Source: Candidatus Woesearchaeota archaeon B3_Woes
Lineage (GTDB): Archaea; Nanobdellota; Nanobdellia; Woesearchaeales; B3-WOES
Assembly (NCBI GenBank): GCA_005222965.1
Contig: NJBG01000001.1
Coordinates: 737,533-801,532 of the forward strand
Reading direction: 5' to 3'
DNA: 64,000 nt
Made by a program: the position numbers and the translations under genes. A model generated the notes under the pieces. That model did no database searches. It was not told the origin of the DNA and worked only from the letters and a program-made list of their open reading frames with translations. Shown here one piece after another: positions 7,088 to 27,600 of the stretch (positions within the stretch are counted from its first letter, which is position 1; every line of letters begins with the position of its first letter).

Positions 7088-7654
7088 ATGAAAAAGAGAC
7101 ACGATATTGCTTTAATTCTTATTGTATTATTAGGAATTGCTACTATTGGTTTTTCTTTATATGATTACTTAAATAAAGAAGAAGTTCAAGAAGTTGCTGT
7201 TGAAGAAGTTTCTGAAGAACCTGTTGTTGAAGAACCAAAACTACTAGGCCCTAACGAAGTTCTAATTCAAATCTTTAGAAACAAATTTGACAAAACAGAA
7301 ATTACAATTGAAACAGGAACAAAAGTTATATGGAAAAACATGGACACAAGACGCCATATGATTACTAATAAAAGATTAGGTTTGTTTAGAACAATGAGAA
7401 AATCTCTTGAATATGGAGATACTTTTGAGTATACTTTTAATGAACCTGGTATTTATGAAATTCTAGAAGCCAATTTCGGTATTAATGGATATGTTATTGT
7501 TGAAGAACCAAAACCAAATCTAATAACTGGTTATGTTGTTTCTAATCTAGAACTAAATGGCCTAAGTTTCCTTCTAATTTCTATAAATCTTTTTGTTATA
7601 ACCGCATTGGCCTTAGTAATCGGCTTTCACATCTCTAGAAAACAGCAGAAATAA
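7088..7654 (+). CDS. Membrane-anchored cupredoxin-like protein; its 3' end is the repeated unit of the cassette array
   Basis: N-terminal TM, ITIETGTKVIWKN...FEYTFNEPGIY, C-terminal TM ending ALVIGFHISRKQQK; similar to 288..764. Confidence 0.75.
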   Translation: MKKRHDIALILIVLLGIATIGFSLYDYLNKEEVQEVAVEEVSEEPVVEEPKLLGPNEVLIQIFRNKFDKTEITIETGTKVIWKNMDTRRHMITNKRLGLFRTMRKSLEYGDTFEYTFNEPGIYEILEANFGINGYVIVEEPKPNLITGYVVSNLELNGLSFLLISINLFVITALALVIGFHISRKQQK

Positions 7655-10363: not shown

Positions 10364-10808
10364 AAAACAAGGAAGAGGGATTAAGCTTCAAGATCCTAAT
10401 AATAATCTTAGTGAAGAGTATTATGAAAATGCAGAAGAAAGTTTAAGGGTTTTAAGAAACATCACAGAAACAAAATCAAAGATGTGGCTTGCAACTACAA
10501 AATATTATATTGAGTATTTTGCTGTTTATTCTGTATTGATGAAAATAGGAATTAAGTGCGAGATTCATGATTGCACTATAGCTTTAGTGAAGTTTTTTGA
10601 AGATGAAGATATTATAGAAAAAGGAACAGCTAAAATTCTGGAAAACGATAAGGAATTAAGAATAGACAACCAGTATTACCTTAAAAATAAGCCTGTTAAT
10701 ATTGATTTTGGAAAGTTATCAGATTTTTTAATATCAATAAGAAGATCTTTAGATAAACTAGATAATGATAAGATAGCTAAACTAATAAAGAAAATTAAAG
10801 GATTTTAG
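10341..10808 (+). CDS. HEPN-domain protein (putative toxin)
   Basis: YYIEYFAVYSVL, CEIHDCT, RIDNQYY; overlaps the MNT gene; start refined to ATG 10341. Confidence 0.8.
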   Translation: MNKIKWCKKQGRGIKLQDPNNNLSEEYYENAEESLRVLRNITETKSKMWLATTKYYIEYFAVYSVLMKIGIKCEIHDCTIALVKFFEDEDIIEKGTAKILENDKELRIDNQYYLKNKPVNIDFGKLSDFLISIRRSLDKLDNDKIAKLIKKIKGF

Positions 10809-10827
10809 AAGTTTTTGAAAAACTTAA

Positions 10828-10890
10828 AATCTTTTTATTATAACAACAATAGCCTTCCACATCAGCCGAAAACAGCAGAAATAATTAATT
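10828..10890 (+). repeat. Gene-tail repeat copy 3
   Basis: Reads NLFIITTIAFHISRKQQK* using AGC-CGA in place of TCT-AGA. Confidence 0.9.
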
Positions 10891-11030
10891 CTTGAGAAAA
10901 ATATTCAACTATATATTTCTAGTTCCGACATCCTAAAAATATAGCTCATTTATATACTTTTCGCGCTACATTCAACTTTTTTATAAATAAAATAGAAAAA
11001 TTTATATACTAGATATATCTACATTTAACT

Positions 11031-11654
11031 ATGAAAAATGAAGAAATTCTCAAAAAACTTGAAGGAATTCAAACCATTGAAACAGTAATGGATTCGTTAA
11101 GCGTAAACAAAGAGAAAGCTATCTATTACATTCATAGGTTGCGCAAAATAGGTTATGTCAAAACTAAAAAATTAAGCAACAATAAGAGAGTATACAACAT
11201 ATCATTTGAAAATAGATTAAAAGGAATTAGTTATTATGAAATCATAAATAAGCATTCCCCTATAAAAATATCAACTCCTAAAACATACAGGATTTATGGA
11301 AAAGAACCAACCCTTGAAGAAACATTAGTTTATGCAATTAAAACACAAAGCTTTAGGATCATACTTGCAGCTTTAATATTATTTAAGAAAATTGACGACT
11401 GGGTTAGTCTATATCAACTAGCAAAGAAAAATCATATTGAGAGACAGGTAGGCGCTCTTTATGATGTTGCTAGAAGAATAATGCTAACAAGAAGAATGAC
11501 AAATAGATTTAGAAATAATGCCTTGCCAAAAAAAGATTATCAATGGAGATCTGTTATCCCAGAATTAAAATCTGATGATTTCAAAAATATTGAGAAAATG
11601 TGGAAAATATATCTCCCCTTTAATAAAAAAGATATGGAGGCTTACAAAAAATGA
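11031..11654 (+). CDS. HTH-containing AbiEi-like antitoxin/regulator
   Basis: N-terminal HTH-like segment; ATGA-coupled to a nucleotidyltransferase gene. Confidence 0.55.
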   Translation: MKNEEILKKLEGIQTIETVMDSLSVNKEKAIYYIHRLRKIGYVKTKKLSNNKRVYNISFENRLKGISYYEIINKHSPIKISTPKTYRIYGKEPTLEETLVYAIKTQSFRIILAALILFKKIDDWVSLYQLAKKNHIERQVGALYDVARRIMLTRRMTNRFRNNALPKKDYQWRSVIPELKSDDFKNIEKMWKIYLPFNKKDMEAYKK

Positions 11655-12313
11655 TTTCAATAGAAGCACAACAAAAATTACTTCTTAATATCTCACGAAG
11701 ATTAAAGAAACCAATAACAGCTTATGCTATTGGGGGAACTGCAATGATGTTCCTTGGATTTAAAGATTCCACTCTTGACATAGACCTTGTATTCGAAAAC
11801 AAGCAGGATCGTGAAATATTTGAGAAAGCTGTTAAAGAAATTGGCTACAGAGAGATGGATTCAGTAATAGTGTATGGAACAAAGCAAAATCAACCAAAAA
11901 TGTTTACATTAGGGGATGAAAGATTGGATCTTTTTGTAATGCATGTGATTGATTTTGATTTTTCTAAGAAAATGATGGAACGAGCAGAACAAACTCATCA
12001 ATTTAATAATAATCTTCTTTTAAAGATTGCGAATCCTCACGACCTTATTTTAATGAAATGTGCTACTGATAGAAAGAAAGATATTGATGATGCAAGAAGA
12101 ATGATCAATAGTACAAAAATAGATTGGAACATTCTAATTAATGAAGCGAAAACACAGATAAGACTTGGAAGACATACTGCTGCTTTTGATTTAGGAGAAT
12201 TTTTAGAGAAACTCAAATACAAAATGAAAATAAATATTCCAAAAGAAGTTCTAGATGATTTATTTGAAATAGTTAAAGAACAAGCAGAAGATAAACAAAA
12301 GAAACAAACTTAG
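11651..12313 (+). CDS. AbiEii/DUF6036-like nucleotidyltransferase
   Basis: IGGTAM...TLDIDL, DLILMK..DRKKDIDD. Confidence 0.8.
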   Translation: MISIEAQQKLLLNISRRLKKPITAYAIGGTAMMFLGFKDSTLDIDLVFENKQDREIFEKAVKEIGYREMDSVIVYGTKQNQPKMFTLGDERLDLFVMHVIDFDFSKKMMERAEQTHQFNNNLLLKIANPHDLILMKCATDRKKDIDDARRMINSTKIDWNILINEAKTQIRLGRHTAAFDLGEFLEKLKYKMKINIPKEVLDDLFEIVKEQAEDKQKKQT

Positions 12314-12362
12314 CCCAGAGTTAATTCAGAATATATAATCTTTACTTAATAATAAACCAAAT

Positions 12363-12419
12363 TTAACAGCAACAGCCTTAGTAATCGGCTTTCACATCTC
12401 TAGAAAACAATAGAAATAA
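12363..12419 (+). repeat. Gene-tail repeat copy 4
   Basis: Reads LTATALVIGFHISRKQ*K*. Confidence 0.95.
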
Positions 12420-12703
12420 CCAAGAGAAATATTTAACCACCTATCTTGTCTGAGCACTATGGAAAAGATGACGGTGTCCTCCTTTATTAACGTTTCTATT
12501 TTAAGACTGTGCCCAGACTGGATTCTCCTAACATTAACACATGGTCTAAAAAATGATACAAAAGCTATTGAAGAAAACGAATCTATCTAAAAAACAATTC
12601 AAAACTTAGAAGAAGAACCAGAACCAAACTTCATAATGTACACACTAACAATTCTTGCAATGTTTGTTTTTGGTTTATTTTGCTTTTAGTAAAAAGAAGT
12701 GGA

Positions 12704-14056
12704 TTATTTGACGATTCTTATATTTTTCACATTAGTAAATTGTATAAAACCCATCTTTGAAAAAATAAATCCTAATCCACTTTTTTTCCTTCCACCCCAT
12801 GGACATTGATCGGAGGAGCCCCCTATTTTATTTATTCCAACAGTAAAATAATCTAATCTTTTGGCAACATCTTTTCCTTTTTTAATATTTTTTGTCCAGA
12901 CAGATGCTGTTAGACCAGTTTCATAAGAATTAACAATTGATATGACATCATTTATATCATTAAATTCACTAATTGTTATTAAAGGTGCAAGATATTCTTC
13001 CCTTAGTGATATCACACGTTTCAAATTTACGGATAAGATAGTGGGTTCTAAAATATTTTTTTTAAACTCCCCACCATACACCAATTTGTAATTCTTATTA
13101 CTTATTAATTCTTTAACTTTTTTTATTTGTTTTTGGGTCTTTAAAGGACCTATTTTTATATTTGGATTAAGAGGATCACCCATTTCTAGTTTTTTTATTT
13201 CTTCTTTTAAGTCATTAATAAAATCATTCCTTATTTTTTTATGAATAAAAACTTTTCTTACATTATTACAGGCTTGTCCAGAATTTTTTGTGAAACCCAT
13301 GATTAAATTTTTAATCGCGTATTTAGCATCAGCATCTTGCAAAACTAACATCACATCATTACCACCTAATTCAAGAATGAGTTTTCTAATATTTGTTGAT
13401 GAAACTTGGTATATTTTTTTGCCAACATTATAACTTCCTGTAAATGATATCATATCTATATTACTTTTCGTTATATAATTTCCTTGTTCAGAACCACCCA
13501 TTACAAGAGAGAATATATTCTCATCGATCCCAGCAGATCTCATAATTTCTTTTATTTTCAGACCACACAAAGGAGATAATTCAGATGGTTTGAACATTAC
13601 AACATTTCCACAAATAAGAGCAGGTATAATACTCCATAAAGGGATATTTATAGGATAGTTCCAACCAGTTATAACACCAACAGCACCAATTGGTTCAAAA
13701 ATTATATGATTTGTTGTTTTTTCATCGATTTTTATTTTCTCTTCTTTGAAATATTTTTCAGAATTATTCAAAAAAAAATTTAACCTAGATACAATCATAT
13801 CTATAGATATTAACGATTCTTTTATCGGCCTACCTATTTCCAAACTAATTAATTTAGCAATTTCCTCTTTTTTTTCTAAAATCTTTCTTGGTACACTTCT
13901 AAGTAGTGAGATTCTTTTACTAAGTTCTAACTGTGACCAGTAAACAAATCCCTTTCTTAATTTTTTTATCTTTTTATCAATATCTATTTTAGAATCGCAA
14001 CCTAATTTCCCAATAATTTTATTATTAAAGGGATTATAACTTTTTATATATTTCAT
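12704..14056 (-). CDS. Aldehyde dehydrogenase
   Basis: GWNYP, KPSE, FTGS, LELGGN, GQAC, WGGRKKSG. Confidence 0.93.
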   Translation of the reverse strand: MKYIKSYNPFNNKIIGKLGCDSKIDIDKKIKKLRKGFVYWSQLELSKRISLLRSVPRKILEKKEEIAKLISLEIGRPIKESLISIDMIVSRLNFFLNNSEKYFKEEKIKIDEKTTNHIIFEPIGAVGVITGWNYPINIPLWSIIPALICGNVVMFKPSELSPLCGLKIKEIMRSAGIDENIFSLVMGGSEQGNYITKSNIDMISFTGSYNVGKKIYQVSSTNIRKLILELGGNDVMLVLQDADAKYAIKNLIMGFTKNSGQACNNVRKVFIHKKIRNDFINDLKEEIKKLEMGDPLNPNIKIGPLKTQKQIKKVKELISNKNYKLVYGGEFKKNILEPTILSVNLKRVISLREEYLAPLITISEFNDINDVISIVNSYETGLTASVWTKNIKKGKDVAKRLDYFTVGINKIGGSSDQCPWGGRKKSGLGFIFSKMGFIQFTNVKNIRIVK

Positions 14057-14060
14057 TTCA

Positions 14061-15320
14061 TCAATACACTTTTTTAATAAATTCGTTTATGTTCATACCT
14101 TTTTCAATCAATTTCATACCATCATCAACCATTATTATATTAGGTTTTAGATATACAAAATTTTCAGACATACTTAGAGTATATGAACCACAATTCAGTA
14201 TAACCATGCAATCATTTTCCTTTATTTTATAAGATTGAATATTTCTTGAAATAACTCCAGCAGTAGACCCAATCCCATCCCCTATATTTATAATTTCCTT
14301 TCCTTCTGTTTTTGTACATGAGATTGGATAGAATCTATTATGTCTTGTTGGTATAAGTATGTTGGTACCAATATCTACAATAACCCACTTTTTTCCAACA
14401 CTCTTCTTTTTTGTTATAACATTTGTTAAGGCAGCAAATGCATCATTTACAATGTATCTGCCGGGTTCTAATATCAACTCTCCATCAAAATTATATTTCT
14501 TCAATATCTTTGATATCCTAGCAGCAAAAAACTCCATAGAACAATTTTTATTTTTTATTAGGAAATTTGAATTAAACCCACCCCCTATATCAATAAATTT
14601 TATATCTATTTCTTTTGATTTAAGGAATTTATAGAATTTACAAAGTTCTTCAGCAACTCTACAGTGCATATTAGGGGAAACTTCGTTTGCTAAAACATGG
14701 CAATTTAAGCCAACCAAGTTTAAGTTTTTTAATTTTTTGATATCTTTTACTAATCTAAAGGCTTCTCCAGATTTGATATCTATCCCTAGTTTTTCTCCCC
14801 TATTAACAAAAAGACTGTTATCCTTAATGTCTGGATGAACTCTTAAACCAACATTAACAACCTTGTTCATTTTTTTGGCAAGGTAGTTTATTTTATTTAT
14901 CTCTGATAAAGAATCACAATTTATACACTTGATTTCCTCTTTTATAACTAACTTTAGTTCTTGCTCTGTTTTAGCACAGCCATTGAAAATAATATCTTTC
15001 TTATCAAAACCGATTTTTCTGCCATATATGTATTCTATATCTGAGAGGATCTCTATTTTTAATCCTTCCTTTTTTATTTTTTCACATATTTTTCTTAAAT
15101 AACACGCCTTTAATGCATAATGTATATTAGTATTCTTATAATATTTCCTAAAAGCCTTTTTAATTTCTTTGATATTTCTCAATAAAGTTTTTTCAGAATA
15201 TAGAATTATGGGGGTATCAAATTTAGATAAAATTCTTTTATAGTTGATGTTATTTATGTGTATCTGATTATCTATATATTTCATCTCTTTTAATGAATTA
15301 ATTATCTTTTCCATTTTCAA
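14061..15320 (-). CDS. PLP-dependent group IV (LysA/ODC-like) decarboxylase, divergent
   Basis: YALKA, FNGCAK, GLRVHP, DIGGG, EPGRY, GSYT; no GPxC motif. Confidence 0.85.
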   Translation of the reverse strand: MKMEKIINSLKEMKYIDNQIHINNINYKRILSKFDTPIILYSEKTLLRNIKEIKKAFRKYYKNTNIHYALKACYLRKICEKIKKEGLKIEILSDIEYIYGRKIGFDKKDIIFNGCAKTEQELKLVIKEEIKCINCDSLSEINKINYLAKKMNKVVNVGLRVHPDIKDNSLFVNRGEKLGIDIKSGEAFRLVKDIKKLKNLNLVGLNCHVLANEVSPNMHCRVAEELCKFYKFLKSKEIDIKFIDIGGGFNSNFLIKNKNCSMEFFAARISKILKKYNFDGELILEPGRYIVNDAFAALTNVITKKKSVGKKWVIVDIGTNILIPTRHNRFYPISCTKTEGKEIINIGDGIGSTAGVISRNIQSYKIKENDCMVILNCGSYTLSMSENFVYLKPNIIMVDDGMKLIEKGMNINEFIKKVY

Positions 15321-15957
15321 AGAGTTTAGTGGGATTTATTTTTAGCTTTGAAATAATTTTTCCTGAAAAAGTTGGTTTGAAAATAGCATCTTCTGGAATA
15401 GTTTCATTAGATTTTATAAAATTTCCATTATTGTTCAACTCAGAATAAGTTATACTTTCTTTATATAATATATCGAAATTATCTTTTTTAACGAATATGA
15501 TTCCAGGTATTTCATCAGAATGGAAGGGTTCTTTTTTTATCTCTCCAATAAAAATGAATAATAACAAACCCCACTTACCATCTTTATTAGGATCCCCCGG
15601 CATTCCTGGAGAGATAAACTCCACAACATAGGCAGGACCATCTTTTATTTTTAATATTCCTTTTTCATTGTTTTCTTTTATGTGTGTTGTGTCTTTTAAG
15701 GGCATAATTTTAATTTCTTGTAGGATTTCCTCTTTTACTTCTCTTAAAGCAGCACGCAAAGGGGATTCTTTTTGTTCTATCCTACCTCCCACACAACTAA
15801 AACCTATCTGAGTCATATTATTACGCTTTTTCCAGTATTTGGATTTATTTATAGCAAAAATAAAGAAATCTTGAAACTTTACAATAGTTGTAGACCCAGC
15901 TATAATAGGTATAGAAGAAAATCTTTTTTTGAAATTTATAAGCAGTTTATTATACAT
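15298..15957 (-). CDS. NUDIX hydrolase
   Basis: Nudix box GGRIEQKESPLRAALREVKEEI. Confidence 0.85.
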   Translation of the reverse strand: MYNKLLINFKKRFSSIPIIAGSTTIVKFQDFFIFAINKSKYWKKRNNMTQIGFSCVGGRIEQKESPLRAALREVKEEILQEIKIMPLKDTTHIKENNEKGILKIKDGPAYVVEFISPGMPGDPNKDGKWGLLLFIFIGEIKKEPFHSDEIPGIIFVKKDNFDILYKESITYSELNNNGNFIKSNETIPEDAIFKPTFSGKIISKLKINPTKLFENGKDN

Positions 15958-15974
15958 ATCACCTAATATCTTCT

Positions 15975-16050
15975 TTAGATTTATAAATGTTTTTATGTTT
16001 AATCATATTTACTACTGGTGAGTAAAATAAAACAAAAGATTTATAAATTC
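15975..16050. promoter_or_regulatory. Divergent archaeal TATA promoters
   Basis: TTTATAAA at 15980-15987 and 16040-16047, each ~22 nt from the flanking ATG, with A-rich BRE-like flanks. Confidence 0.6.
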
Positions 16051-16068
16051 TGATCTTATACTAAACAT

Positions 16069-17859
16069 ATGCACCATAAAGAAATTACCAATATTTTCTT
16101 GAATTATTTTATAGATAGAGATCATCATTTATTACCAAATCAATCTTTAATACCATCTGAATCTGATTCATCTGGTCTTTTTATAAACTCAGGTATGCAC
16201 ACAATAAAACCTTATTTTTATGGAATAGAAAAACCTCAAAAAAGTAAGCTATGTTCAATACAAAAATGTTTAAGAACAATAGACATTGATAATGTTGGAT
16301 ATAACAGAAGGACTTTAACACTCTTCTCTATGTTAGGCAGTTGGTCAATAAATGATTATTGGAAGGAAGATGCTATTCCACTTGCTTATGAATTATTAGT
16401 AGATAGTTTTGGTTTTGATCCAAATAAGTTAAGTGTTACTTATTTTGAAGGAGATGATAAAGTACCTGAAGATTTAGAAACAAAGGCAGAATGGGAAAAA
16501 GTTGGAGTCCCAGAAGAAAGGATTATAAAATTGGATGGAAAGAACAATTTTTGGTCTGCAGGACCTACAGGTTTATGTGGGCCTTGTACAGAAATTTATT
16601 TTGATAGAGGAGAAGAATATGGTTGCGGAGAAGAAACATGTAAACCTAGTTGTGATTGTGATAGGTATTTGGAAATATGGAATGCAGGGGTATTTATTCA
16701 ATATGACAGACAAAAAGATGGTAGCTTAAAGACTCTCCAACTTATAAGCGTGGATACGGGTGCAGGTCTTGAAAGAATAGCAACTATCTTACAAGGCAAG
16801 GATTCAGTATATGACACCACCATATTTAAACCAATCGTTTCCAATATAATCAGTTCTTGCAGTATAGAAAAAGAAGACTTATCATCAGAAAATAAATATG
16901 TTAGAATCATAGCAGACCATTTAAGAGCCTCAACATTCTTACTAGCCGAAAACATTATTCCAAGCAACATTGATAGAGGTTATGTTTTGAGGAGACTTTT
17001 GAGGAGATCAATAAATCATGCTTCAAGTTTAGGTATTGAGAAAGATGGTCTAGTTGGTGTTGTTGATAAAATAATCCTCAATGAGGGTGAAGAACATACA
17101 TATCTTCAAGAGAACAAGGATATAATATTACTTAATTTTGCTAGAGAATATGATGGATTCATCAAAACCCTAAATAAAGGTAAGAAAAAATTAATGCAAG
17201 CAATTGAAGGATTATTTCAAGGAAGTGAACTGGAATCACAGATAGCATTTAATCTTTTTGATACTTATGGATTCCCATTTGAATTGACAGAGGAAATTTG
17301 TAAACAGAAAGGAATAATAGTTAATCAAAACACATTTAAGGACTTATTACAAGAACACAAAGCCAAATCAAGAGCTGGTTTTCAAAAAAAGTTTAGTTCT
17401 GGTTTAATGACCAGTTCATATATCTGTGTGAAATATCATACTGCAACACATTTACTACATCAGGCTTTGAGGGATGTTTTAGGTGAAGAGGTTGAACAAA
17501 AAGGGAGCAATGTTACCCCAGAAAGATTAAGATTTGATTTTTCATTCCAAAGACCTTTAACACCTGAAGAAATTTCTAATGTAGAAGAGATAGTAAATCA
17601 AAAGATAAAATCTAATTTAAAAATCACAAAAAAAGTAACAAGTTTAGAAGAGGCAATTGCCTCAGGGGCGATAGCATTATTTCAAGATAAGTATGATAAA
17701 AAAATTAATGTCTACTCAATAGGGGATTATTCTAAAGAGGTTTGTAAGGGGCCACATATCCAAGAAACCTCTGAATTAGGGAATTTTAAAATTATTAAAG
17801 AAAAAAGTTCTTCATCAGGTATTAGGAGAATAAGAGCAGTACTAAAAGAGGAATTTTAA
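16069..17859 (+). CDS. alaS: Alanyl-tRNA synthetase-like protein (short form lacking C-Ala)
   Basis: NSGM, QKCLR, GPCTEI, DTGAGLER, RGYVLRR, DTYGFP; editing motifs HTATH and CKGPH. Confidence 0.85.
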   Translation: MHHKEITNIFLNYFIDRDHHLLPNQSLIPSESDSSGLFINSGMHTIKPYFYGIEKPQKSKLCSIQKCLRTIDIDNVGYNRRTLTLFSMLGSWSINDYWKEDAIPLAYELLVDSFGFDPNKLSVTYFEGDDKVPEDLETKAEWEKVGVPEERIIKLDGKNNFWSAGPTGLCGPCTEIYFDRGEEYGCGEETCKPSCDCDRYLEIWNAGVFIQYDRQKDGSLKTLQLISVDTGAGLERIATILQGKDSVYDTTIFKPIVSNIISSCSIEKEDLSSENKYVRIIADHLRASTFLLAENIIPSNIDRGYVLRRLLRRSINHASSLGIEKDGLVGVVDKIILNEGEEHTYLQENKDIILLNFAREYDGFIKTLNKGKKKLMQAIEGLFQGSELESQIAFNLFDTYGFPFELTEEICKQKGIIVNQNTFKDLLQEHKAKSRAGFQKKFSSGLMTSSYICVKYHTATHLLHQALRDVLGEEVEQKGSNVTPERLRFDFSFQRPLTPEEISNVEEIVNQKIKSNLKITKKVTSLEEAIASGAIALFQDKYDKKINVYSIGDYSKEVCKGPHIQETSELGNFKIIKEKSSSSGIRRIRAVLKEEF

Positions 17860-17882
17860 TATTAACTAGTTTTGAATACAAA

Positions 17883-19082
17883 ATGAGAATAAAACTTGAT
17901 AAAACCCCAATAAAAAAATTTCAAAAGGAAAATGGTTTTGTTCTATACAATCCACTGAACCACGAGATAGTGTTTAACAAATCAAATCTCCAACCAGCGG
18001 ATGATATATTCTTAGATTCTATTACACTAGAAAGACCTAAATTAAAAAAGGCAAGAGTTGAGCTAACTTTAGGGTGTAATGCTGCATGCAAATATTGTGT
18101 TGTTTTTAAAAATGATGTATCAAATATTGGAAAAACGATGAATCATGGAACAGCTAGAAATATTGCGGCCTTTTTTAATGAAAATATGATGGGTGGTACA
18201 CTCATGTTGATAGGGGGCGAACCCTTGGATGCGTGGGACATAACAAAATATCTCTTTGAGTCTTGTGAAGCAGGAGAGAAAGTACTTTTTACTAATGGTA
18301 CTTTGGTAACTAAAGAGTATGCTAAATTTTTATCTGACCAAAAAGTATTGGTTTTGGTTTCATTAGACGGTATGCATCAACATAACACTCAAAGAGTATA
18401 TTCAGATGGACGCGAGATTTTCGGTGATACAATAAGGGGTCTTCGAACTTTACAAGATGCAAATTCAAAAATCGCTATATCTGCTGTTGTTACAAACCAT
18501 AATGTTTATGATCTTGCAGATATAGTAGAGTTCTATCATAAAGAGCTTAGTGTGGATTCAGTGGGTTTAACAACCCCCCATCATATAAATAATTTTGACT
18601 TTGCACTAGATATAAAAGAATATACTAATCAAATGTTAAATATATTTTCATATTCACAAGAAAATAATATTTATATAGATCAGATAGCAAAGAGAATTAA
18701 AGCTATAGCTCACCAGGATTTTAAAGATAGGGCGTGTAAAATATCGGGAGATCAAATTACTTTTTATCCAGATGGTACAACTAGTCTATGCATAAAAATA
18801 GATAAAATACCTAAATTAAAAGACAAAAAGGCAGATTATTATTTCGAAAAATTGCCAATCTTTGACTCTAGTTGCGTGGAGTGTACTGCTATAGGTGTTT
18901 GCGGAGGAGGTTGTTATTTAGATGCTTTTTATGATCCTACTGGTAGGGATCAAAGGGATTGTTATTTTTACCCAAAATTAGTTGAGCATATTATATGGGA
19001 TATGAAAGACTTAGTTGATGAAAAAGGCAAAATATCCAAAGAAAAAAGGATCCTAAAATACAAGGGTATGTTACATGAATAA
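17883..19082 (+). CDS. Radical SAM/SPASM protein
   Basis: CNAACKYC, GGEP, SLDG; C-terminal C...C, CVECTAIGVCGGGC...C. Confidence 0.92.
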   Translation: MRIKLDKTPIKKFQKENGFVLYNPLNHEIVFNKSNLQPADDIFLDSITLERPKLKKARVELTLGCNAACKYCVVFKNDVSNIGKTMNHGTARNIAAFFNENMMGGTLMLIGGEPLDAWDITKYLFESCEAGEKVLFTNGTLVTKEYAKFLSDQKVLVLVSLDGMHQHNTQRVYSDGREIFGDTIRGLRTLQDANSKIAISAVVTNHNVYDLADIVEFYHKELSVDSVGLTTPHHINNFDFALDIKEYTNQMLNIFSYSQENNIYIDQIAKRIKAIAHQDFKDRACKISGDQITFYPDGTTSLCIKIDKIPKLKDKKADYYFEKLPIFDSSCVECTAIGVCGGGCYLDAFYDPTGRDQRDCYFYPKLVEHIIWDMKDLVDEKGKISKEKRILKYKGMLHE

Positions 19083-22000
19083 CGTATTAAAAGAGATAGA
19101 AAGGATAAAGAGTAGTGAGAAAATCCTATTTAAATTGGATAAAAATAAAAAATATAAAATCACTCTTTGTTATCCAGATACCTATACAACAGGTATGCCA
19201 AACTTAGGAATCCAATATTTCTTCAAAGAAATTAACACAAGGAATGATTTTTTTGCTGGCAGGTGTTATTTGCCTAATAAAAAGGTTTGGAAAAAAATAG
19301 TAGAGTGTAATCTACCTTTATATGATTGGGATTCTTTGGAAGAATTAAAAAATTCTGATATACTTTCTTTTACAGTTTCTTTTGAAGATGAATTTGTGAA
19401 TATCGTAAGAATGTTAAAATTTGCAGGAATTAATCCCATCGCTTCAGAAAGGAAAGAAAAAGGTCCTTTGATAATTGCAGGGGGTCCGTGTTCTAGTTAT
19501 AATCCTGAACCATTTTCAAAATTTATAGATGCTTTTGTTATAGGTGAAGGAGAAACAATGATACATAAATTGCTAGATATTTACAAGAATTCTGAGGATA
19601 AAAAAAGTTTTCTTAGAAATATAGATGTTTTAGAATCTGTCTATGTCCCTTCATTCTATGATTTCGAGTTTGAAGGCAAAAGAATAAAAAAAATTATCAT
19701 AAATGGAAAGGAAAATGTTTATAGAAACTATGTTAAAAATCTCGACAAATCCCCTATTTGTTCTACAATAATAAATAAAAAATCACAATATAAAGAAGAA
19801 GTTTTCTCAATAGAAGTTTCAAGAGGATGCAGGATGCATTGCAGGTTTTGTTATATAGGTAACCATTTTAGAAAACAAAGGGTGTTATCTCTCAACAAAA
19901 TAAAAGAACTCATTAATGAAGGGAAAAAATATACAAAAAACATAAAACTTTTTTACGAGGTTTTACCACCTAAGTATTATTCTGATTTATTCAAAGTTTT
20001 ATTGGACTTTGTTAAAAAAGATGACATAAAACTTAAATTAGGATCATTTAGAGTAGAATACCTAAACAGTAATATCGTTAATGTTGTTGCCATGGGTAAC
20101 CAAGACAAGATTATCATTGCTCCAGAAACAAGCGAAGGTAAACTGAGAAATTTCATAAATAAAGGTCAAATGAGCGACGAAAAAGTAAAAAATGCTGTTA
20201 AATTATGTCTCGAAAAAAGCATAAAAAATTTTGGTTTATATCTTATGGTTGGAATACCCACAGAAACCAAAAAAGATATAGACTCTTTGATAAATCTTAT
20301 TATAGATGTTTTTAATATAATAAAGGATAGAAACAAGAAGGGGATTTTAGAAGTCCATATAAATGCATACTTCCCTAAACCACTAACACCTTTGCAGCTG
20401 GAAAGAAACATATCTCAAAAAGAAGCAATAGGAAAAATAGAGTATATACAATCTAAGATTAAAATAAGATTAAATAGTGAGGATTTTAAAAGAGTGCATT
20501 TTAAAACAATAGTTTATGATGAGATATCTTACAGCCAACCCATCCTAACAAGGGGGGATAGACGTCTAGGGAATGTTTTACTTGATGTATGTAAACTAAC
20601 TTATCCTTACACAAACAAAACACCAACACCCGAAATATGGGACTATGCATTAAGAAAAAATAGACTAGAAGCAAAATATTACTATCGTGAAAGGGATTCT
20701 ACTGAAATTATGCCGTGGCATATAATAAAAAATAATACTAGCAAAACCTACTTTATGAGAGAAAGGGAGAGAGCATATAAAGGTCAGCTAACTGATCCTT
20801 GTCATCATTCATCATGTGATGTTTGTAAATCTTGTCTAGATGTAAACCAATTAATGAAGATTGTTATAGTTTGTCCACCATTAAAAGCACCTATAAAATC
20901 ATGGAGATACTGCCCCTATCATAATTGGAAATTTTCTTTTAGTACAGGCGATCATGGTTACTCGGGCGTAAATATGCCTATATGTTTAATTGCTTCTTTT
21001 TTGAGGAAAAAAGGCATTAATGTTGATATTCTTGACGCTTTTTTTGAAGATATTTCGATAGAAGATACTATAGAAAAGATATCTAAATATAGCATTATAG
21101 GGATAACTGTACATTCTAATGTCAATCTTACCGACATAAAAAAAATAATAAAGAAATTAAGAAGTCTAAGAAAAAATCATAAGATAGTACTTGGAGGTCA
21201 CTATCCTTCATATTTCCCTGAGAAATGTATAAATGAGCTAGATGCAGATTTTGTTATAAGGGGAGAAGGAGAAGAATCAATGTTTGAATTAATTCAATGT
21301 TTACAAGAAGGTTTTGATTTAACTAAAGTAAAAGGGTTGACATTTAAACAAAAGGGTAGAATCTTTAGTAACGAACCAAGGGAAAAAATAAATAACCTGG
21401 ATAGTTTACCTTTTATGGCGAGAGATTATATACAAAAAGAACTTGAACTTAAATTTGTCCCTGCTATATCTTCGAGTAGAGGTTGTGATTATTCAGGATG
21501 TTCTTTTTGTGATATTGCTTCTTTTCAAAAAACATCAATTGGTCCTGTTTGGAGAGGGAGATCTGCTAAGAATATAGTAGATGAGATAGAATACATAACC
21601 AAAAAGTGGAAATTTAATAAATTTAAATTTGTTGATCCAAATTTTGTAGGGGGGAAAAATGGGAGAAAAAGAGCTTATAAAATCGCAGACGAAATTATCA
21701 AAAGAGGATTAAAAGTTAGATATATGTTTGACACAAGAGTAGATGAGATTAATAAAAAATTGTTTAAAAAGTTATATAAATCTGGTTTAAGGATGGTTTA
21801 TCTCGGAGTCGAATCCTGTATCCAGAGGCAACTTGATTATTTTAATAAAAATACAACGCTTCAATCAAACAAAAAAGCTATAAAAACTTTAAGAGAGACA
21901 GGCATTATACCTCTTTTTGGAATCATAGTATTTGAACCAACAACAACCCTAGAAGAAATTAGAAAAAACTTTGACTACTTTATTTCGAAAGGTGGATTCA

Positions 22001-22416
22001 ATATTTATAGGTTTGTTAGAGGAATTATTCCTAGATTTGGTACACCTATGATGGATATGTTCGAAAAACAAGGCATACTCATAAAATCTTATCCTGACTA
22101 TAAATACAAATTCGAGAATAAAGAAGTAAGGGTACTTTTTAATAAATCAGATATATATGCACAAAATGTTTTTTTGATTGAAAAAAAGTATAAAGAAAAA
22201 ATATTGAAAAAAATATCAAAAGAAATTAACAGACCTTTCTTTTTACATTTAGAGAGATTCCTAAAACAAAAAACCATTGAACATTTTGAACTTTTATTAA
22301 AGGAGTTTGAAATAAACAAAGATGTTTCTCCTCAACTTATAGATAAAATGATCAAAAATTTTAGTAAAGAAATAGAAACAGAATTTAAAACTAAATTAGA
22401 AAATGCCAAGATTTAG
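19075..22416 (+). CDS. Fused double radical SAM protein (two B12-binding-like + radical SAM modules)
   Basis: SRGCRMHCRFC and SRGCDYSGCSFC, each preceded by AGGP/LGGH...GEGE; Cys-rich linker. Confidence 0.9.
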   Translation: MNNVLKEIERIKSSEKILFKLDKNKKYKITLCYPDTYTTGMPNLGIQYFFKEINTRNDFFAGRCYLPNKKVWKKIVECNLPLYDWDSLEELKNSDILSFTVSFEDEFVNIVRMLKFAGINPIASERKEKGPLIIAGGPCSSYNPEPFSKFIDAFVIGEGETMIHKLLDIYKNSEDKKSFLRNIDVLESVYVPSFYDFEFEGKRIKKIIINGKENVYRNYVKNLDKSPICSTIINKKSQYKEEVFSIEVSRGCRMHCRFCYIGNHFRKQRVLSLNKIKELINEGKKYTKNIKLFYEVLPPKYYSDLFKVLLDFVKKDDIKLKLGSFRVEYLNSNIVNVVAMGNQDKIIIAPETSEGKLRNFINKGQMSDEKVKNAVKLCLEKSIKNFGLYLMVGIPTETKKDIDSLINLIIDVFNIIKDRNKKGILEVHINAYFPKPLTPLQLERNISQKEAIGKIEYIQSKIKIRLNSEDFKRVHFKTIVYDEISYSQPILTRGDRRLGNVLLDVCKLTYPYTNKTPTPEIWDYALRKNRLEAKYYYRERDSTEIMPWHIIKNNTSKTYFMRERERAYKGQLTDPCHHSSCDVCKSCLDVNQLMKIVIVCPPLKAPIKSWRYCPYHNWKFSFSTGDHGYSGVNMPICLIASFLRKKGINVDILDAFFEDISIEDTIEKISKYSIIGITVHSNVNLTDIKKIIKKLRSLRKNHKIVLGGHYPSYFPEKCINELDADFVIRGEGEESMFELIQCLQEGFDLTKVKGLTFKQKGRIFSNEPREKINNLDSLPFMARDYIQKELELKFVPAISSSRGCDYSGCSFCDIASFQKTSIGPVWRGRSAKNIVDEIEYITKKWKFNKFKFVDPNFVGGKNGRKRAYKIADEIIKRGLKVRYMFDTRVDEINKKLFKKLYKSGLRMVYLGVESCIQRQLDYFNKNTTLQSNKKAIKTLRETGIIPLFGIIVFEPTTTLEEIRKNFDYFISKGGFNIYRFVRGIIPRFGTPMMDMFEKQGILIKSYPDYKYKFENKEVRVLFNKSDIYAQNVFLIEKKYKEKILKKISKEINRPFFLHLERFLKQKTIEHFELLLKEFEINKDVSPQLIDKMIKNFSKEIETEFKTKLENAKI

Positions 22417-23140
22417 TATGAGTGAATGGAAAAAAGAAGGATTTGATATTAGAATATTAGATAAACCCGTCCAATATGCGAATCTAGACAGGATGTGTTT
22501 GACACACCCCTGCTATTTTCATTTTAATAATTATCAAGCGAGCAATTTTTATTCATTAGAATCTGTTTTTGATGGAGGACTTAAATTTTTAGTTCTTGCT
22601 TTTCCAAAAAATAAAGATTTGAGTAGAAAATCAAAATTTGATGTAGATTCAATAGATGATTATATAGCCTTTTATAAGAGTATAAATGGTAATGATTATG
22701 AATTTAATTTTGTTGAACAGATAGAGGGTATAAAAAAAGGGTTTGTAGGGGTTGCTATTTCAGATGAAAAAGGCAATGTTTTGATAGAGTGTTATAAACA
22801 ACCTTATGAAACAAATGTATATAAATTTACTAGCGGATCATGCGATCCAGTTAACATTTCTTCTTTTTTATTTATGGATTATGGAGATTTAACTTTAGCA
22901 GATGTTGGTAAAGCAAAACCTTCTTTGAGAATACTCAAGGATATTGAGCAAAAAGTCGATCTTTTTTTTGGATACTTTGAATTCATTTATGGAAAAACAG
23001 AACATCTAGGAGAATGCATCTATTTTACAGATCATCAAACAGACAAGAATTTTTTAAGCAGTCTTTATTCTTCCATGGATGAACTAGGAAATGTAACAAA
23101 AAGATTAAATGCTAGTATAATAAAATCTTGTTTAGATTAA
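22403..23140 (+). CDS. Hypothetical protein, last gene of the biosynthetic operon
   Basis: 245-aa ORF overlapping the upstream gene. Confidence 0.7.
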   Translation: MPRFSMSEWKKEGFDIRILDKPVQYANLDRMCLTHPCYFHFNNYQASNFYSLESVFDGGLKFLVLAFPKNKDLSRKSKFDVDSIDDYIAFYKSINGNDYEFNFVEQIEGIKKGFVGVAISDEKGNVLIECYKQPYETNVYKFTSGSCDPVNISSFLFMDYGDLTLADVGKAKPSLRILKDIEQKVDLFFGYFEFIYGKTEHLGECIYFTDHQTDKNFLSSLYSSMDELGNVTKRLNASIIKSCLD

Positions 23141-23274
23141 TGAATCTTTCTTCGTTCTGCCACTAAAGTTTCCATTTTATGTATCTATTATAATTTTTGT
23201 TTTATTAAACTGAAAAAATTCTTTAAAACCCATTTAAGAATATTATATTTTGGTTTATATAAATGTATAGTACA

Positions 23275-23334
23275 ATCACAACAACAGCCTTAGTAATCGG
23301 CTTCCACATCTCTAGAAAACAACAGAAATAATTA
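23275..23334 (+). repeat. Gene-tail repeat copy 5
   Basis: Reads ITTTALVIGFHISRKQQK*. Confidence 0.95.
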
Positions 23335-23339
23335 TTTAT

Positions 23340-24188
23340 TTATCTTATACTAACTTGTTGTTGCTTTTGTACACATTCCTTTCTGTACATTTTTACTCTT
23401 TTTATCAACTGCTTTTCTTCTTTGTCTAATCTTCGCTTTTGTGAATAAAGCTCTAATCCTCTATCAAAAGCCCCTACTGCTTCATCATACTGTTCTAATA
23501 ACATAAGAGACCTTCCTATTCCAATGTCAAAAAAAGGAAAATTTGAGTCAATACACTTTCCTTTATTAAAATATAATAAAGCTAATTTAGGATTTTCTTT
23601 ACCTAAATATACATTACCAATACTTTGGTAATTTTCCTTCGCTTTTTTGTCTGAATTAAGAGTTTCTTTAAATGAGTCTAGTGCTTCATCCAATCTCCCT
23701 TGGAAATGATATGCAAGTCCAATATTATAGGTTGTTATAGGATGCCCACCACTTAATACATTAGCAGATTTAAAAGCCTCTAATGCTTCATCATATTTTC
23801 CTTGATTAAGTAACTTTTTACCTATTGCATTCATATTTCCACCAGCTCTTGATAAATCAGATAAAACAGACCTTCCTTTTAATCCATTATCAACAGCCAA
23901 ACCAAACTCAGATAAAGATGCATCATAATATTCATCAACATCTTCTTCATATAGTTGACTTAATTCAAAATGTAAATTAGGATCTTTAGGTTTTTCTTCT
24001 ATTCTTTGTTGTAATTGTGATATTCTTGATTCTAAAGAATTACCTATTTGTTCTTGTACAAAACTTCCATCTAAAGAACCACTTGCTTGTTCTTGTCCAA
24101 AAACTTTAGAAAGATAGGAAAAAGCAGAAGCTAATACAACTCCTTTTGCTACATCTTTTCCTAATCCTAAAAACTCTCTTCTATTCAT
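23340..24188 (-). CDS. TPR protein with twin-arginine-like N-terminus
   Basis: MNRREFL; repeated GKYDEAL / YNIGLAY / GNVY TPR patterns. Confidence 0.8.
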   Translation of the reverse strand: MNRREFLGLGKDVAKGVVLASAFSYLSKVFGQEQASGSLDGSFVQEQIGNSLESRISQLQQRIEEKPKDPNLHFELSQLYEEDVDEYYDASLSEFGLAVDNGLKGRSVLSDLSRAGGNMNAIGKKLLNQGKYDEALEAFKSANVLSGGHPITTYNIGLAYHFQGRLDEALDSFKETLNSDKKAKENYQSIGNVYLGKENPKLALLYFNKGKCIDSNFPFFDIGIGRSLMLLEQYDEAVGAFDRGLELYSQKRRLDKEEKQLIKRVKMYRKECVQKQQQVSIR

Positions 24189-24330: not shown

Positions 24331-24609
24331 GTGGGTGGTATTTTGCAAAAAAAAGAGTTGACAGACTATAGTTTATTTCTTTATTCTTTTCCTAGAGATA
24401 TGGCCCCAAAAGACAAGGTTAAATTTCTAAGAGAATTCTTTGGTTATCACATTTCAAAAAACGGAAAAAGTTATTCTTATGGTGGTTTATTAAAAAAACT
24501 AGGAGGAAATAAACTTTCCAATACTTCCTTTCTAATTCCTCCAAGAAATAATAAAATAATTGAAGCTTATCTACAATCAAGAGGTGTTGATTTTGTTGTC
24601 AAAGAATAA
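24331..24609 (+). CDS. Small hypothetical protein heading the surface-protein operon (possible regulator)
   Basis: 92-aa ORF; resembles a small alpha/beta domain I recall from DPANN proteins. Confidence 0.55.
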   Translation: MGGILQKKELTDYSLFLYSFPRDMAPKDKVKFLREFFGYHISKNGKSYSYGGLLKKLGGNKLSNTSFLIPPRNNKIIEAYLQSRGVDFVVKE

Positions 24610-27600
24610 ACCATTCCATACACTAAAATCCCAAGTAACAGCATTTATCTTAGTAGGGATACTAATAATAGCTATTGTATGGGGATCATTATACATCTCT
24701 GAATATTTTGCAAAAAAAGACATGGAAAAATTCGCACCAGCAGGACATCAACTAACTCTGGAAAGCGATACAATAAAAGAAAACATAGATACTTGCGTCC
24801 AATCTCTAACAGATAAAGGAATGCAACTTATGTCTGACCAAGGTCTACATCTAGATATTCCTGAAAATCATACTTATAACAATTACTCTTATTGGCTTAA
24901 AAACACAATAAACATAATGCCAAGCAGTTTTGAAAAAATTGAACAGGACTTAGCATATTACATAAACACAAACCTATATAATTGTGCAAATCTTGACGAA
25001 TTCAAAGAAAATGGATGGGATATATCACCTTTTAATCCTTCTACAACAGCAAAAATACAAGAACAAGACATTGGAGTAGAAGTTAAATACGCAATAAATG
25101 TTAAAAAACAAGATTTTGAAAGAGAATTCTCAAACTCAATTTATAATCCTAAAATAAGATTCAGACAAATGTATAGTAAATCTGTTGATTTTATGAACAA
25201 TCAATTACTAAAACCAGACTTTGACTTTAACAATCCTCTTGAAGGTTATAATACTACAGGTTACACAATTAACCATGAAAAACTAGATAATCAAACACTA
25301 TTATTTTCTATAATAGATTCTCAAAGTAAGATTCTTGATGGAAAACCATTTACACTAACATTCGTAGCAGACTTTAGCACAAATAATGTTATAAGAAATT
25401 ATGATATAAGCAATTACCAAGATTATAGAGCAGTATTTTCACCAGACAGGTTGGCTGTTTTGATACTAGAACCAGAAACAATCCAGAGTAATGACACAAT
25501 AACAATAACACAATATAAAACAGATTCTGTAACAAGAGAAAATACTCCAGCAGAAAAGATTAAAACAACTATCACACAAACAAAGGATATTGTTTTTAAT
25601 ACAGCTTATCCAATATACAGATTTGGTTCTGCTGAAACAATGTTTAGCAATCCAGTAATTTTAAGGATTTATTTGAATAAAGACCAAAGACACGTCCCAG
25701 ATGATTTTAGCTTGCTTTATAATGGAAAAAACGGATGGTTACCTTATCCAAATGAGATTAATTCTTCAGCAGGTTATATTGATTCTCTAATATATGGTTT
25801 TAGTGAATACACTCCTATTGATTGTAGTGCAATGCCTGTTCAGGAATATCCTGGTCCTAAAGCAGAAGAAGATAGAGGTTTTTGGGGTGCATGGGGCCCT
25901 ATTATTATAGCAATAGCAGCAATCGTAGCAATAGCTTTAGCAATACACTTTCTACCAGGTCTTTTAAATCCTCTATCCAAGGGAGGAAATATCATCTTTC
26001 CTCATGCCGTTTACGAACCACCACAAGAAGAAAACTCTTCTAACTCACAATCTGGTTTAGCATCAACATCAAACATGCTATTAGGAAATAATTTAGCATA
26101 TGAGTTATTATCAAAATACCCTTCAATAGCAGACTTAAACTCATTAGCCTTAGCAGCATATGAATCATACACATTATGGGGCGAGGCAGCAAACGCAAAA
26201 AACACAATGCTCATAACAGCACTATGTGACAATCAAATTATAATAGATCCAAAAGAAAAAGACGGTGATTGTGATTGTTTTGTAACAGATATGGAAACAG
26301 GCGAATCAAAAAAATCAAAAAGTTATGATGTAAAAAAAGGAAAAGCATACACAATAACTGCAGCTGTAACCGATTTTGATGCATTTGAGGAAAAAGCTTC
26401 ATGCCAATGCAATATAAAAGGTTTAGTTGTAACTGTTTCAGATACATCTTATGAAGAAGAAATTCTTCCAGCTCCTGTTTCACCTATTAAAAACACAAAA
26501 CCATTTCTTAGTTGTTGCATAACAAAAGATAATTATTGCCTTGACAATTATCTCACAGATATATGTGATGGAAAAACAATAGAAAAAACCTGTAATGAAA
26601 TCAAAGAATGCGCAAAACCACTTCCATTATCTGGTGAGGGCATACTAAGAACAACCAACCAAAACACGAGGTCTAATTTTGGTGCAGAAGGAGAAAATTT
26701 CTTAATAACATATTATCTTCCAAGTGCAGACCAAAACACACAGGTAATAGTCCATATCAAAGCAGATAACCAACTAATAGAATCTATAAACTTATATGAT
26801 AATGGCATGCACAAAGATGGACTTAGAAATGATAAATACTATGCAAGCACATGGAATACTCTAAAAGTACTTCAAAACTCAAATACAAAAAAAGTTACAG
26901 CAGATATCGAAGTTATCTATACAGATTCACAAACAACACTTCCTAATGTAGGATCTTTAATGATACTTAATAAAAACATAGACTGTAATCCAATGGGTGT
27001 TCTTTCTTTTAATAATGACCTTGATATAAGATTTGCAGCTAATCATTATAATGATTTTAATAAATATTCACAAAATGCAGAAAGGACTGCTTCAAAAATA
27101 CTTTTGACAACTCCATTTACACAATATTACAGAAACAAAGGTATTAATTTTTACAAGTCTAACAAATTATTTGATACAACAGATACAACACAAATAAACA
27201 ATTATTTAGATAATCAATGTAGCTATTCTAACTCTCCTAAAAAACTAACAATAAGCCTTAATGATAATGCAGTAGAATGCAATCAAAAAGATTCAGTTGT
27301 AGAACTAAATCCATTAATTACATTCAAATCAGAAATATCAAATACAAATATCGATTTAGTATTATCAGATTTTTGCAGTTATGTAAATAATATTATTTTT
27401 TTAAACCCACCAAAACCAGAAATAATAACACAAAACACCACAACAATACCAGGAAATGTAGATGTTGAATTTAAAATAATAGACGAAGAATATCCAGTTA
27501 ATTATGAATTGTTGTGGAATCATATGCATCAAGTACAAGACCAAGTACACGACAACTCTCCAAAAACACACACACTAAACTTACCAAATGGAGAATGGAT

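Follow-up and report, generated by a model that had tools for sequence, protein, structure and literature searches.

A repeat-bounded gene block with a second alanyl-tRNA synthetase and three radical SAM modules in a woesearchaeotal genome

A 64,000-nucleotide stretch of the genome of Candidatus Woesearchaeota archaeon B3_Woes (contig NJBG01000001.1, positions 737,533 to 801,532; "the window" below) contains a block of seven open reading frames (ORFs) that includes a second gene for alanyl-tRNA synthetase (AlaRS2) and genes for three radical S-adenosylmethionine (SAM) modules. The reading that best explains the observations, to which we assign a probability of roughly 0.4, is that the block entered the genome laterally as an island without an integrase and encodes one specialised pathway that has an AlaRS of its own, and this combination of enzymes probably makes or tailors an alanine-linked product. 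The original prediction, made from the sequence of the window, had proposed an undescribed pathway here, to an amino-acid or nucleoside analogue or to an RNA or peptide modification, and had pointed to synthetase paralogues of biosynthetic clusters that serve in self-resistance or as aminoacyl transferases, such as the AlaRS-like enzymes of ascamycin biosynthesis. The pathway proposal gains from the presence of a second AlaRS, the discrete insertion of the block, the lack of close orthologues and a partial recurrence in other genomes; it loses the transferase role modelled on the ascamycin enzyme AcmF.

The proposed island would have inserted at the 3′ end of the gene at 7088–7654, with two divergent operons that serve one pathway. 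AlaRS2, a radical SAM enzyme of SPASM type, a double radical SAM fusion and a stand-alone ATP-grasp-fold protein (U245) would be co-transcribed and form the conserved core. AlaRS2 would most likely be the pathway's own alanine activator, either supplying Ala-tRNA or staying active when a product or intermediate inhibits the native enzyme (AlaRS1), a role modelled on AcmD and on the SbzA-type extra synthetases of bacterial clusters. Assembly and tailoring of the product would fall to the radical SAM modules and the ATP-grasp protein, and a NUDIX hydrolase, a decarboxylase-like protein and an aminoaldehyde-type aldehyde dehydrogenase (ALDH) would prepare a nucleotide- or amine-derived precursor. 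The analysis establishes the gene content, the coupling within the operons, AlaRS2 as a second copy of separate ancestry, the fold assignments, the insertion footprint and a partial recurrence of the gene set; we infer that both operons serve a single pathway, what AlaRS2 does in it and the whole of the chemistry. A self-resistance or aminoacyl-supply role of AlaRS2 is plausible by analogy.

Repeat borders and the second alanyl-tRNA synthetase

The host genome (G000) measures 1.02 Mb, is 96% complete and is archaeal by its small-subunit rRNA (1405 bits on the archaeal model versus 1062 on the bacterial one), so its description as a reduced archaeon holds. Within the window, positions 7585–23348 contain five direct copies of a repeat with a core of about 50 nt that occurs nowhere else in the genome; copies 1, 4 and 5 share 95–96% identity. 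Copy 1 is the genuine 3′ end of the ORF at 7088–7654, and copies 2–5 are non-coding or vestigial duplicates. The five copies bound four tandem blocks of 1.9, 1.1, 1.4 and 10.8 kb, of which the last (12437–23261) is the cluster, bordered by copies 4 and 5 as had been predicted. The other blocks carry unrelated small gene sets with nucleotidyltransferase/HEPN-like or DUF6036-type pairs. This pattern looks like serial insertions at the 3′ end of one gene, in the manner of a cassette array, and supports the view of the block as a discrete inserted unit. No integrase, recombinase or transposase family was found in the 47 window ORFs scanned (13 + 34), a scan that left aside eight overlapping ORFs of at least 100 residues. 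Two more minimal nucleotidyltransferase (PF01909/PF18765) pairs, each with a small partner, occur at 43506–44598 and 44992–45991; they resemble the pairs of the repeat-bounded blocks and adjoin a family-B DNA polymerase gene (46121–48571).

Two full AlaRS genes, both of the short bacterial type and 45% identical to each other, are present in the host genome. AlaRS1, the native enzyme encoded elsewhere, scores 878 bits on the alanine–tRNA ligase equivalog NF002436; AlaRS2 scores 674.8 bits (cut-off 529) over residues 1–594 of 596 and has aminoacylation and editing (PF07973) domains and no C-Ala. A 62-row tree gives the two genes separate ancestry and establishes the AlaRS-like gene of the original prediction as a genuine extra copy. 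AlaRS1 falls within a 22-row clade (support 99) with 19 rows from same-order relatives and the proteins P0167 and P0175, and it is 74% identical to the AlaRS of G018. AlaRS2 lies in a different, 17-row clade (support 93); within it, a 4-row clade (support 97) joins AlaRS2 to its nearest rows, which are P0123 (75–77% identical), P0122 (60%) and the additional AlaRS that G009 encodes. Mean column identity among ten members of the AlaRS2 clade is 76%.

AlaRS2 reads as an active synthetase: it has Arg, Trp, Asn, Asp and Gly at the pocket positions, whose roles we take to be those assigned in work on Escherichia coli AlaRS, and its HxxxH and CxxxH editing motifs are intact. Two features mark its lineage. 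A one-residue insertion gives the motif EIWNAGVF, a pattern found in 4 of the 401 genomes of the phylum with no control hits, and the motif-2 stretch HxTFFEMLG reads TLTLFSMLG, with replacement of an otherwise invariant His and Glu. The His/Glu replacement is present in the host genome, G009 and G257, and the gene concerned is the second AlaRS in all three. The insertion-bearing AlaRS of G179 keeps the His and Glu and is the sole AlaRS of that genome. The insertion was considered as a mark of neofunctionalisation and was rejected, because it also occurs in the sole-copy AlaRS of G179 and of bacteria of the candidate phyla radiation (CPR).

The distribution of AlaRS types in the order is patchy, with the short bacterial type in 18 of 60 relatives (E ≤ 1e-30) and the others below threshold, and G009 and G257 each hold two AlaRS genes of different lineages. 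A metagenome scan with AlaRS2 returned 11 loci, all 36–40% identical, with the 60–77% relatives not among them, and a genome-contig scan with the AlaRS2-clade alignment gave none above 45% identity among the best 80 of at least 599 matches. ARAGORN identified 22 or 32 tRNAs in the host genome, depending on the intron setting, and no tRNA-Ala. Because tRNAs in this group are rich in introns, which probably conceal tRNA-Ala from the program, this result is uninformative. The same program called an unassigned tRNA at C1:197810-197905 with a four-base "tgcg" anticodon.

Operon layout and predicted enzymes of the proposed island

The seven ORFs, their coordinates and their family matches agree with the original prediction, as do the arrangement in two divergent operons with overlapping genes (Table 1) and the count of three radical SAM modules, one in the SPASM enzyme and two in the 1113-residue fusion. 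The operons had also been called tightly coupled, which is borne out by measured gaps and overlaps of 4 to 23 nt on both strands. On the plus strand, a 23-nt gap separates AlaRS2 from the SPASM gene, which overlaps the fusion gene by 8 nt, and the fusion gene overlaps that of U245 by 14 nt. On the minus strand, the NUDIX gene comes first and overlaps the decarboxylase-like gene by 23 nt, and a 4-nt gap precedes the ALDH gene. The 111-nt spacer between the operons contains the 12-mer AGATTTATAAAT twice, identically, at 15977–15988 and 16037–16048. Each copy has a TATA-like core about 21–22 nt from its start codon, in line with the archaeal TATA boxes that had been proposed, and the paired sites fit a pair of archaeal promoters whose transcripts would have a short leader or none. 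ALDH, the decarboxylase-like protein, NUDIX, the SPASM enzyme and U245 are each encoded by a single copy in the host genome.

Table 1. Features of the island and its borders, in window coordinates.
Feature	Coordinates	Strand	Basis
188-aa membrane-anchored protein, presumed insertion target	7088..7654	+	3′ end 7585-7671 = repeat copy 1
Repeat copy 4, left island border, decayed duplicate of the 3′ end of the 7088-7654 gene	12350..12436		Repeat comparison
ALDH, NAD(P) aldehyde dehydrogenase, 450 aa	12704..14056	-	PF00171, 403 bits
Fold-type III pyridoxal phosphate (PLP) decarboxylase-like, LysA-related, non-canonical, 419 aa	14061..15320	-	PF02784 + PF00278
NUDIX hydrolase, 219 aa, first gene of minus operon	15298..15957	-	Pfam 26 bits + Nudix box
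Divergent promoter region, 111 nt	15958..16068		Two identical AGATTTATAAAT 12-mers
AlaRS2, 596 aa	16069..17859	+	NF002436, above cut-off
Radical SAM/SPASM enzyme, 399 aa, small DPANN family	17883..19082	+	Two Cys motifs
1113-aa fusion: TIGR03960-like radical SAM module + B12-binding radical SAM module	19075..22416	+	Profile matches, Cys motifs
U245, 245-aa stand-alone ATP-grasp-fold protein, without sequence family	22403..23140	+	Structure model
Repeat copy 5, right island border	23262..23348		Repeat comparison

The SPASM enzyme has a CX3CX2C motif at C65/69/72 and a CX2CX5CX3C motif at C331/334/340/344, and the Pfam SPASM model did not fire on it. Its family comprises 16 members with 29–59% identity in which all radical SAM and SPASM cysteines are invariant, and the source records of two of them give the names Nanoarchaeota or Aenigmatarchaeota. 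The structure model (mean predicted local distance difference test, pLDDT, 88.9) is matched best in Foldseek by anSME (E 1e-16, TM 0.61–0.72), followed by CteB (TM 0.70–0.71), with the nucleoside-acting BlsE and the viperins ranked below both. This ranking is a weak pointer to peptide- or protein-modifying maturases as the closest relatives, and it is biased by the fact that solved SPASM structures are mostly of peptide enzymes. A search of the 401 phylum genomes for the SPASM family matched seven, and the six besides the host hold 22–28% identical paralogues with no cluster genes nearby; a search of viral contigs with the family alignment returned three loci at 25–28% identity only.

The N-terminal module of the fusion (residues ~19–584) has a C252X3CX2C motif and combines a PF19864 N-domain (156 bits) with a radical SAM core. 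It scores 368.8 bits on TIGR03960, below the cut-off of 462.3, which none of the 401 phylum genomes exceeds, and in a tree it forms a long branch in an unresolved trichotomy between bacterial and DPANN clades of the TIGR03960 superfamily. In a search of 5.8 billion proteins restricted to lengths of 612–1948 residues, the best matches of the fusion are TIGR03960 proteins of Clostridia, at 31–32% identity over about half of the query. The C-terminal module (residues ~629–1000) has PF02310 (87 bits, 629–738) followed by a second PF04055 stretch with C804X4CX2C, the domain order of class B (B12-binding) radical SAM enzymes. The B12-dependent methylation raised in the original prediction would be a putative activity of this module. 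The best solved sequence relative of the C-terminal module is OxsB (PDB 5ul2; E 6.9e-20, 74 bits, residues 633–969). A literature search on TIGR03960, DUF2344 and TIGR03936 yielded nothing on function. A defence-system reading was considered and dropped, as PADLOC gave weak generic matches (pVip-like, 45 bits, for the SPASM enzyme; PDC-M51A, 78 bits, for the B12 half).

U245 has 37 relatives among 1.84 billion representatives, and none of the 30 members compared has a Pfam match. An AlphaFold model built from 30 sequences (pLDDT 92.6) and the Atlas model agree on an ATP-grasp fold. Foldseek relates the former to D-Ala-D-Ala ligases, the beta subunit of succinyl-CoA synthetase and RimK (probability 1.0, E ~1e-5, TM 0.4–0.5), and VIA-align relates it to the ATP-grasp domain of rifampin phosphotransferase (Z 12.0, root-mean-square deviation 3.6 over 180 residues), with further matches to HpeI (10.6), ACD1 (9.9) and DdlA (9.8). 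By these models U245 is a stand-alone ATP-grasp domain, and thus a predicted ligase or kinase module, a nature of the seventh ORF that was missed in the original prediction. The models thereby assign a fold to a small protein family that had no annotation.

The decarboxylase-like protein scores 230 bits on TIGR01048, below the cut-off of 298, and its best PDB match is the diaminopimelate (DAP) decarboxylase 2p3e (167 bits). It retains the PLP-Lys, GGG and EPGR motifs, and the Cys-Glu-Ser-x-Asp stretch, which we take to be the usual catalytic stretch of DAP decarboxylases, reads GSTAG. Neither DapA nor DapF was found in the host genome, which leaves this LysA-like gene without a lysine pathway, and the predicted function of the protein is something other than lysine synthesis. 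The nearest solved relatives of ALDH are aminoaldehyde and betaine-aldehyde dehydrogenases (3iwk, 227 bits). The NUDIX protein has an intact catalytic box (G58-x5-E-x7-REVKEE) and matches Atlas NUDIX clusters (0.97, TM 0.75–0.79).

Two features elsewhere in the window concern other genes. Adjacent giant ORFs of 1045 and 1097 residues at 24560–30971 have no Pfam family and are tandem paralogues that share stretches of 77–84% identity (repeat families D1–D3 and D6). At 2830–4190, a 211-residue ORF that matches only positions 86–271 of the diphthamide-synthesis family PF01866 overlaps a family-less ORF of 242 residues, and the pair may be a split or unusual Dph2.

Recurrence in other genomes and competing explanations

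Five island genes (those for the fusion, AlaRS2, the decarboxylase-like protein, ALDH and U245) were searched in 60 relatives of the same order, and none of them has a close orthologue there. The fusion matched 36 of 61 genomes, the host included; outside the host all matches lie within residues 585–1103 at 23–37% identity, and the N-terminal half has no match in the 60 relatives. The decarboxylase-like protein (18 of 61 genomes) and ALDH (17 of 61) have relatives at no more than 30% and 34% identity, respectively. U245-family genes occur in 10 of the 401 phylum genomes, a count that includes the unpublished genome G351, which was otherwise not used.

One of these genomes contains a comparable association. 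In G257, an AlaRS2-type gene and a U245 homologue (255 bits in hmmsearch) are divergently oriented and 97 nt apart. The synthetase shares 47% identity with AlaRS2 and 58% with the extra copy of G009 and has the motif-2 variant, and a long AlaRS is encoded elsewhere in the genome. Adjoining genes encode a 480-residue CYTH-domain protein, a 502-residue B12 radical SAM protein and a 430-residue HemW/HutW-like radical SAM protein. The region (L189, C39:14500-34499, ~4100–15970) also has genes for a HisC-like aminotransferase, a bacterial-type TyrRS, a Vut_1 transporter, a small methyltransferase and a kinase-like protein, and it may represent another island, one in which synthetases of bacterial type accumulate. 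Metagenomic records give a further indication. A longest contig of 62,992 bp is recorded for P0122 (AlaRS2, 60% identical), P0283 (SPASM enzyme, 59%) and P0246 (U245, 41%), and one of 14,294 bp for P0244 (AlaRS2, in the cluster of P0123, 77%) and P0370 (U245, in the cluster of P0245, 67%). These equal figures suggest that each set sits on a shared metagenome contig. The picture that would refute the original prediction, of genes that never meet elsewhere and are all housekeeping orthologues, does not apply to the plus operon, of which AlaRS2-type, ATP-grasp, B12 and other radical SAM genes recur.

Several observations weigh against a single specialised pathway. Neither a product nor a transporter, precursor peptide or carrier protein was found for the island; the absence of a transporter and of a precursor peptide from the block had already been noted in the original prediction, and the only small ORF that might bear on a ribosomally synthesised peptide product (43 residues, 12459–12590) is apparently unconserved. 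The 5.8-billion-protein search, with matches of 612–1948 residues, returned no protein of the fusion's architecture, so the cluster as a whole is not conserved as such. No other locus was shown to join the minus-strand trio of ALDH, decarboxylase-like protein and NUDIX to the plus operon. The shared metagenome contigs are deduced solely from identical longest-contig figures, and gene adjacency was not seen in them. The radical SAM proteins of G257 are of different kinds (HemW-like, not SPASM or TIGR03960-like), its U245 homologue is only 29% identical, and its recurrence may be analogy or chance, B12 radical SAM paralogues being abundant there. The G009 genome lacks SPASM-family and U245-family genes, and its AlaRS2-type contig is just 2.2 kb long. 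In G179 and in CPR bacteria the only AlaRS is a relative of the AlaRS2 lineage, which makes the NAGVF form compatible with housekeeping. Homologues of U245 in G087, G216, G191, G354, G219 and G238 stand in unrelated neighbourhoods with no adjacent AlaRS, many of them linked to translation, with genes for pyrophosphatase (twice), S7/S12, Dus, pseudouridine synthase and ArgRS nearby. The island is also ordinary in composition, with a GC content of 29.2% versus 30.2% and a tetranucleotide deviation that is equalled or exceeded in 23% of genome windows, which implies that any transfer was old or came from similar genomes.

An explanation that we regard as doubtful without being far-fetched is that the block is mosaic cargo of unrelated genes that accreted and serve no single pathway. 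Its parts would be a xenologous AlaRS with a translation-linked ATP-grasp protein, as a replacement under way; radical SAM enzymes that tailor glycans, lipids or cofactors; and a catabolic trio for amines or aminoaldehydes. The patchiness of the short AlaRS type among the relatives suggests repeated displacement, the AlaRS2-type gene of G257 is about 1.6 kb from the bacterial-type TyrRS with one gene between them, and the U245 homologues near ArgRS, S7/S12, Dus, pseudouridine synthase and pyrophosphatase are consistent with a translation-linked protein. The unrelated nucleotidyltransferase-type pairs of the neighbouring repeat-bounded blocks and the abundance of B12 radical SAM paralogues in these genomes also favour accretion. 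Against it, the four plus-strand genes are translationally coupled by their short gap and overlaps (23, 8 and 14 nt), homologues of AlaRS2, the SPASM enzyme and U245 appear to travel together (60, 59 and 41% identity), and the His/Glu-replaced AlaRS is an extra copy and never a replacement in the three genomes that have it.

An unlikely explanation is that the operon has tRNA-Ala, Ala-tRNA or a protein of translation as its target. AlaRS2 would then charge a dedicated substrate that the ATP-grasp protein ligates or phosphorylates, and the radical SAM enzymes would convert the alanyl group or modify tRNA or protein. The structure model of the SPASM enzyme is nearest to the protein and peptide maturases anSME and CteB, U245-family genes elsewhere often neighbour translation genes, AlaRS2 retains its tRNA-editing domain, and known synthetase paralogues modify proteins or feed tRNA-dependent pathways according to one review (PMC9437257). 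However, no extra tRNA and no Rfam RNA match was found within the window, nothing ties NUDIX, the decarboxylase-like protein or ALDH to such a role, and the bias of solved structures toward peptide enzymes bears on the SPASM ranking. Least probable of all is acquired resistance alone, in which AlaRS2 would guard against an AlaRS inhibitor from a host or neighbour and the adjacent enzymes would be unrelated or detoxifying; acquired insensitive synthetases such as plasmid-borne IleRS2 are known (PMC9437257) and the second-copy lineage has substitutions at two otherwise invariant positions of motif 2, but AlaRS2 shares a tightly coupled operon with three radical SAM modules and is accompanied elsewhere, too, by genes for radical SAM and ATP-grasp proteins.

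Within the specialised-pathway reading, pointers to the substrate of the island diverge: the SPASM fold and the ATP-grasp protein suggest a peptide or protein, and the NUDIX protein, the CYTH protein of G257 and the OxsB-like half of the fusion suggest a nucleotide or small molecule. This reading can also be taken further than the evidence above. Improbably, the block could be the first antibiotic-type cluster of a DPANN archaeon, in which radical SAM enzymes make an inhibitor of the alanine-activating enzyme, either resembling alanyl-adenylate or being an alanylated nucleotide or peptide, AlaRS2 with its altered motif 2 confers immunity and the whole is an integrase-less cassette mobile among Woesearchaeota. 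In a bolder variant, the radical SAM enzymes may convert a tRNA-bound alanyl group into another amino acid, which would be a tRNA-dependent amino-acid synthesis in an organism without the normal biosynthesis. DPANN archaea are, to our knowledge, thought to be host-dependent, with almost no specialised metabolism; if the pathway reading is true, the island would represent rare secondary-type chemistry in this group and could matter for how these archaea deal with hosts or competitors. The lineage of extra AlaRS copies with altered motif-2 residues offers a concrete and testable handle. We know of no application of resistance-gene-guided mining to archaea so far, from literature searches that had other aims.

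Comparison with known systems

Extra aminoacyl-tRNA synthetase copies in producer clusters provide immunity or a supply of aminoacyl-tRNA, as described in two papers (PMC12945691, PMC9437257). In the ascamycin (acm) cluster of Streptomyces, as described in PMC12945691, AcmD clusters with canonical AlaRS and charges tRNA-Ala for the pathway, and the transferase AcmF is truncated, without an editing domain, and has the substitutions N219Q and D232E. The island resembles this cluster in having its own AlaRS-family gene beside a housekeeping AlaRS, and AlaRS2, like AcmD, looks intact. It differs from AcmF in that it keeps the editing domain, N205 and D229; with neither the truncation nor the Asn/Asp changes, the analogy to an AcmF-like aminoacyl transferase is not supported. 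The island differs from the acm cluster as a whole in that no acm-type sulfamate or nucleoside genes are seen, the host is archaeal and radical SAM enzymes dominate. The self-resistance synthetases (SbzA IleRS, albomycin SerRS2, mupirocin IleRS2 and indolmycin TrpRS2; PMC12945691, PMC9437257) are likewise divergent second copies within a cluster, and AlaRS2 is such an extra copy beside a housekeeping copy and among biosynthetic-type genes. Any inhibitor that AlaRS2 would resist is hypothetical. Table 1 of a 2022 review (PMC9437257), in its accessible part, contains only amino acid:carrier-protein ligases and no comparable duplicate of a full-length AlaRS.

At the level of the whole block, islands like cis-mobilizable elements (CIMEs) share the bracketing of a recombinase-free block by direct repeats of the 3′ end of a host gene; here, four such blocks stand in tandem at one target and resemble a cassette array. 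At the level of single enzymes, the fusion shares its PF19864 N-domain and radical SAM core with the bacterial, uncharacterised TIGR03960 family, whose members are often fused to DUF2344, whereas the N-terminal half in the window is fused to a class B radical SAM module. OxsB acts on a nucleotide and has a phosphohydrolase as its partner. Besides being the best solved relative of the C-terminal half of the fusion, it offers a loose parallel between its partner phosphohydrolase and the NUDIX protein; the match reaches only 74 bits, few class B structures exist, and no HD-domain partner is present here.

The TIGR03960-like half of the fusion has a further parallel within DPANN archaea. An operon in G384 (L056, G384:C1:40000-59999), G219 (L196, G219:C1:456000-475999) and G212 (L057, G212:C7:92000-111999) has genes for a SPASM enzyme, an amidohydrolase, a TIGR03960-like protein, a thymidylate-kinase-like protein and a NUDIX protein; in G212 the amidohydrolase is fused to a radical SAM protein, and an Hsp70/MreB-like ATPase gene is nearby. 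As in the island, the SPASM gene is directly upstream of the TIGR03960-like gene and a NUDIX gene lies in or beside the operon. The SPASM enzymes are only 19–20% identical to that of the window, so this operon is a parallel and not the same system; moreover, the window has no amidohydrolase or kinase gene, and the tree does not unite the N-terminal half of the fusion with the clade of these TIGR03960-like proteins. The operon is a candidate module for nucleotide modification or for the salvage of radical SAM by-products, and it gives context for the uncharacterised TIGR03960 family.

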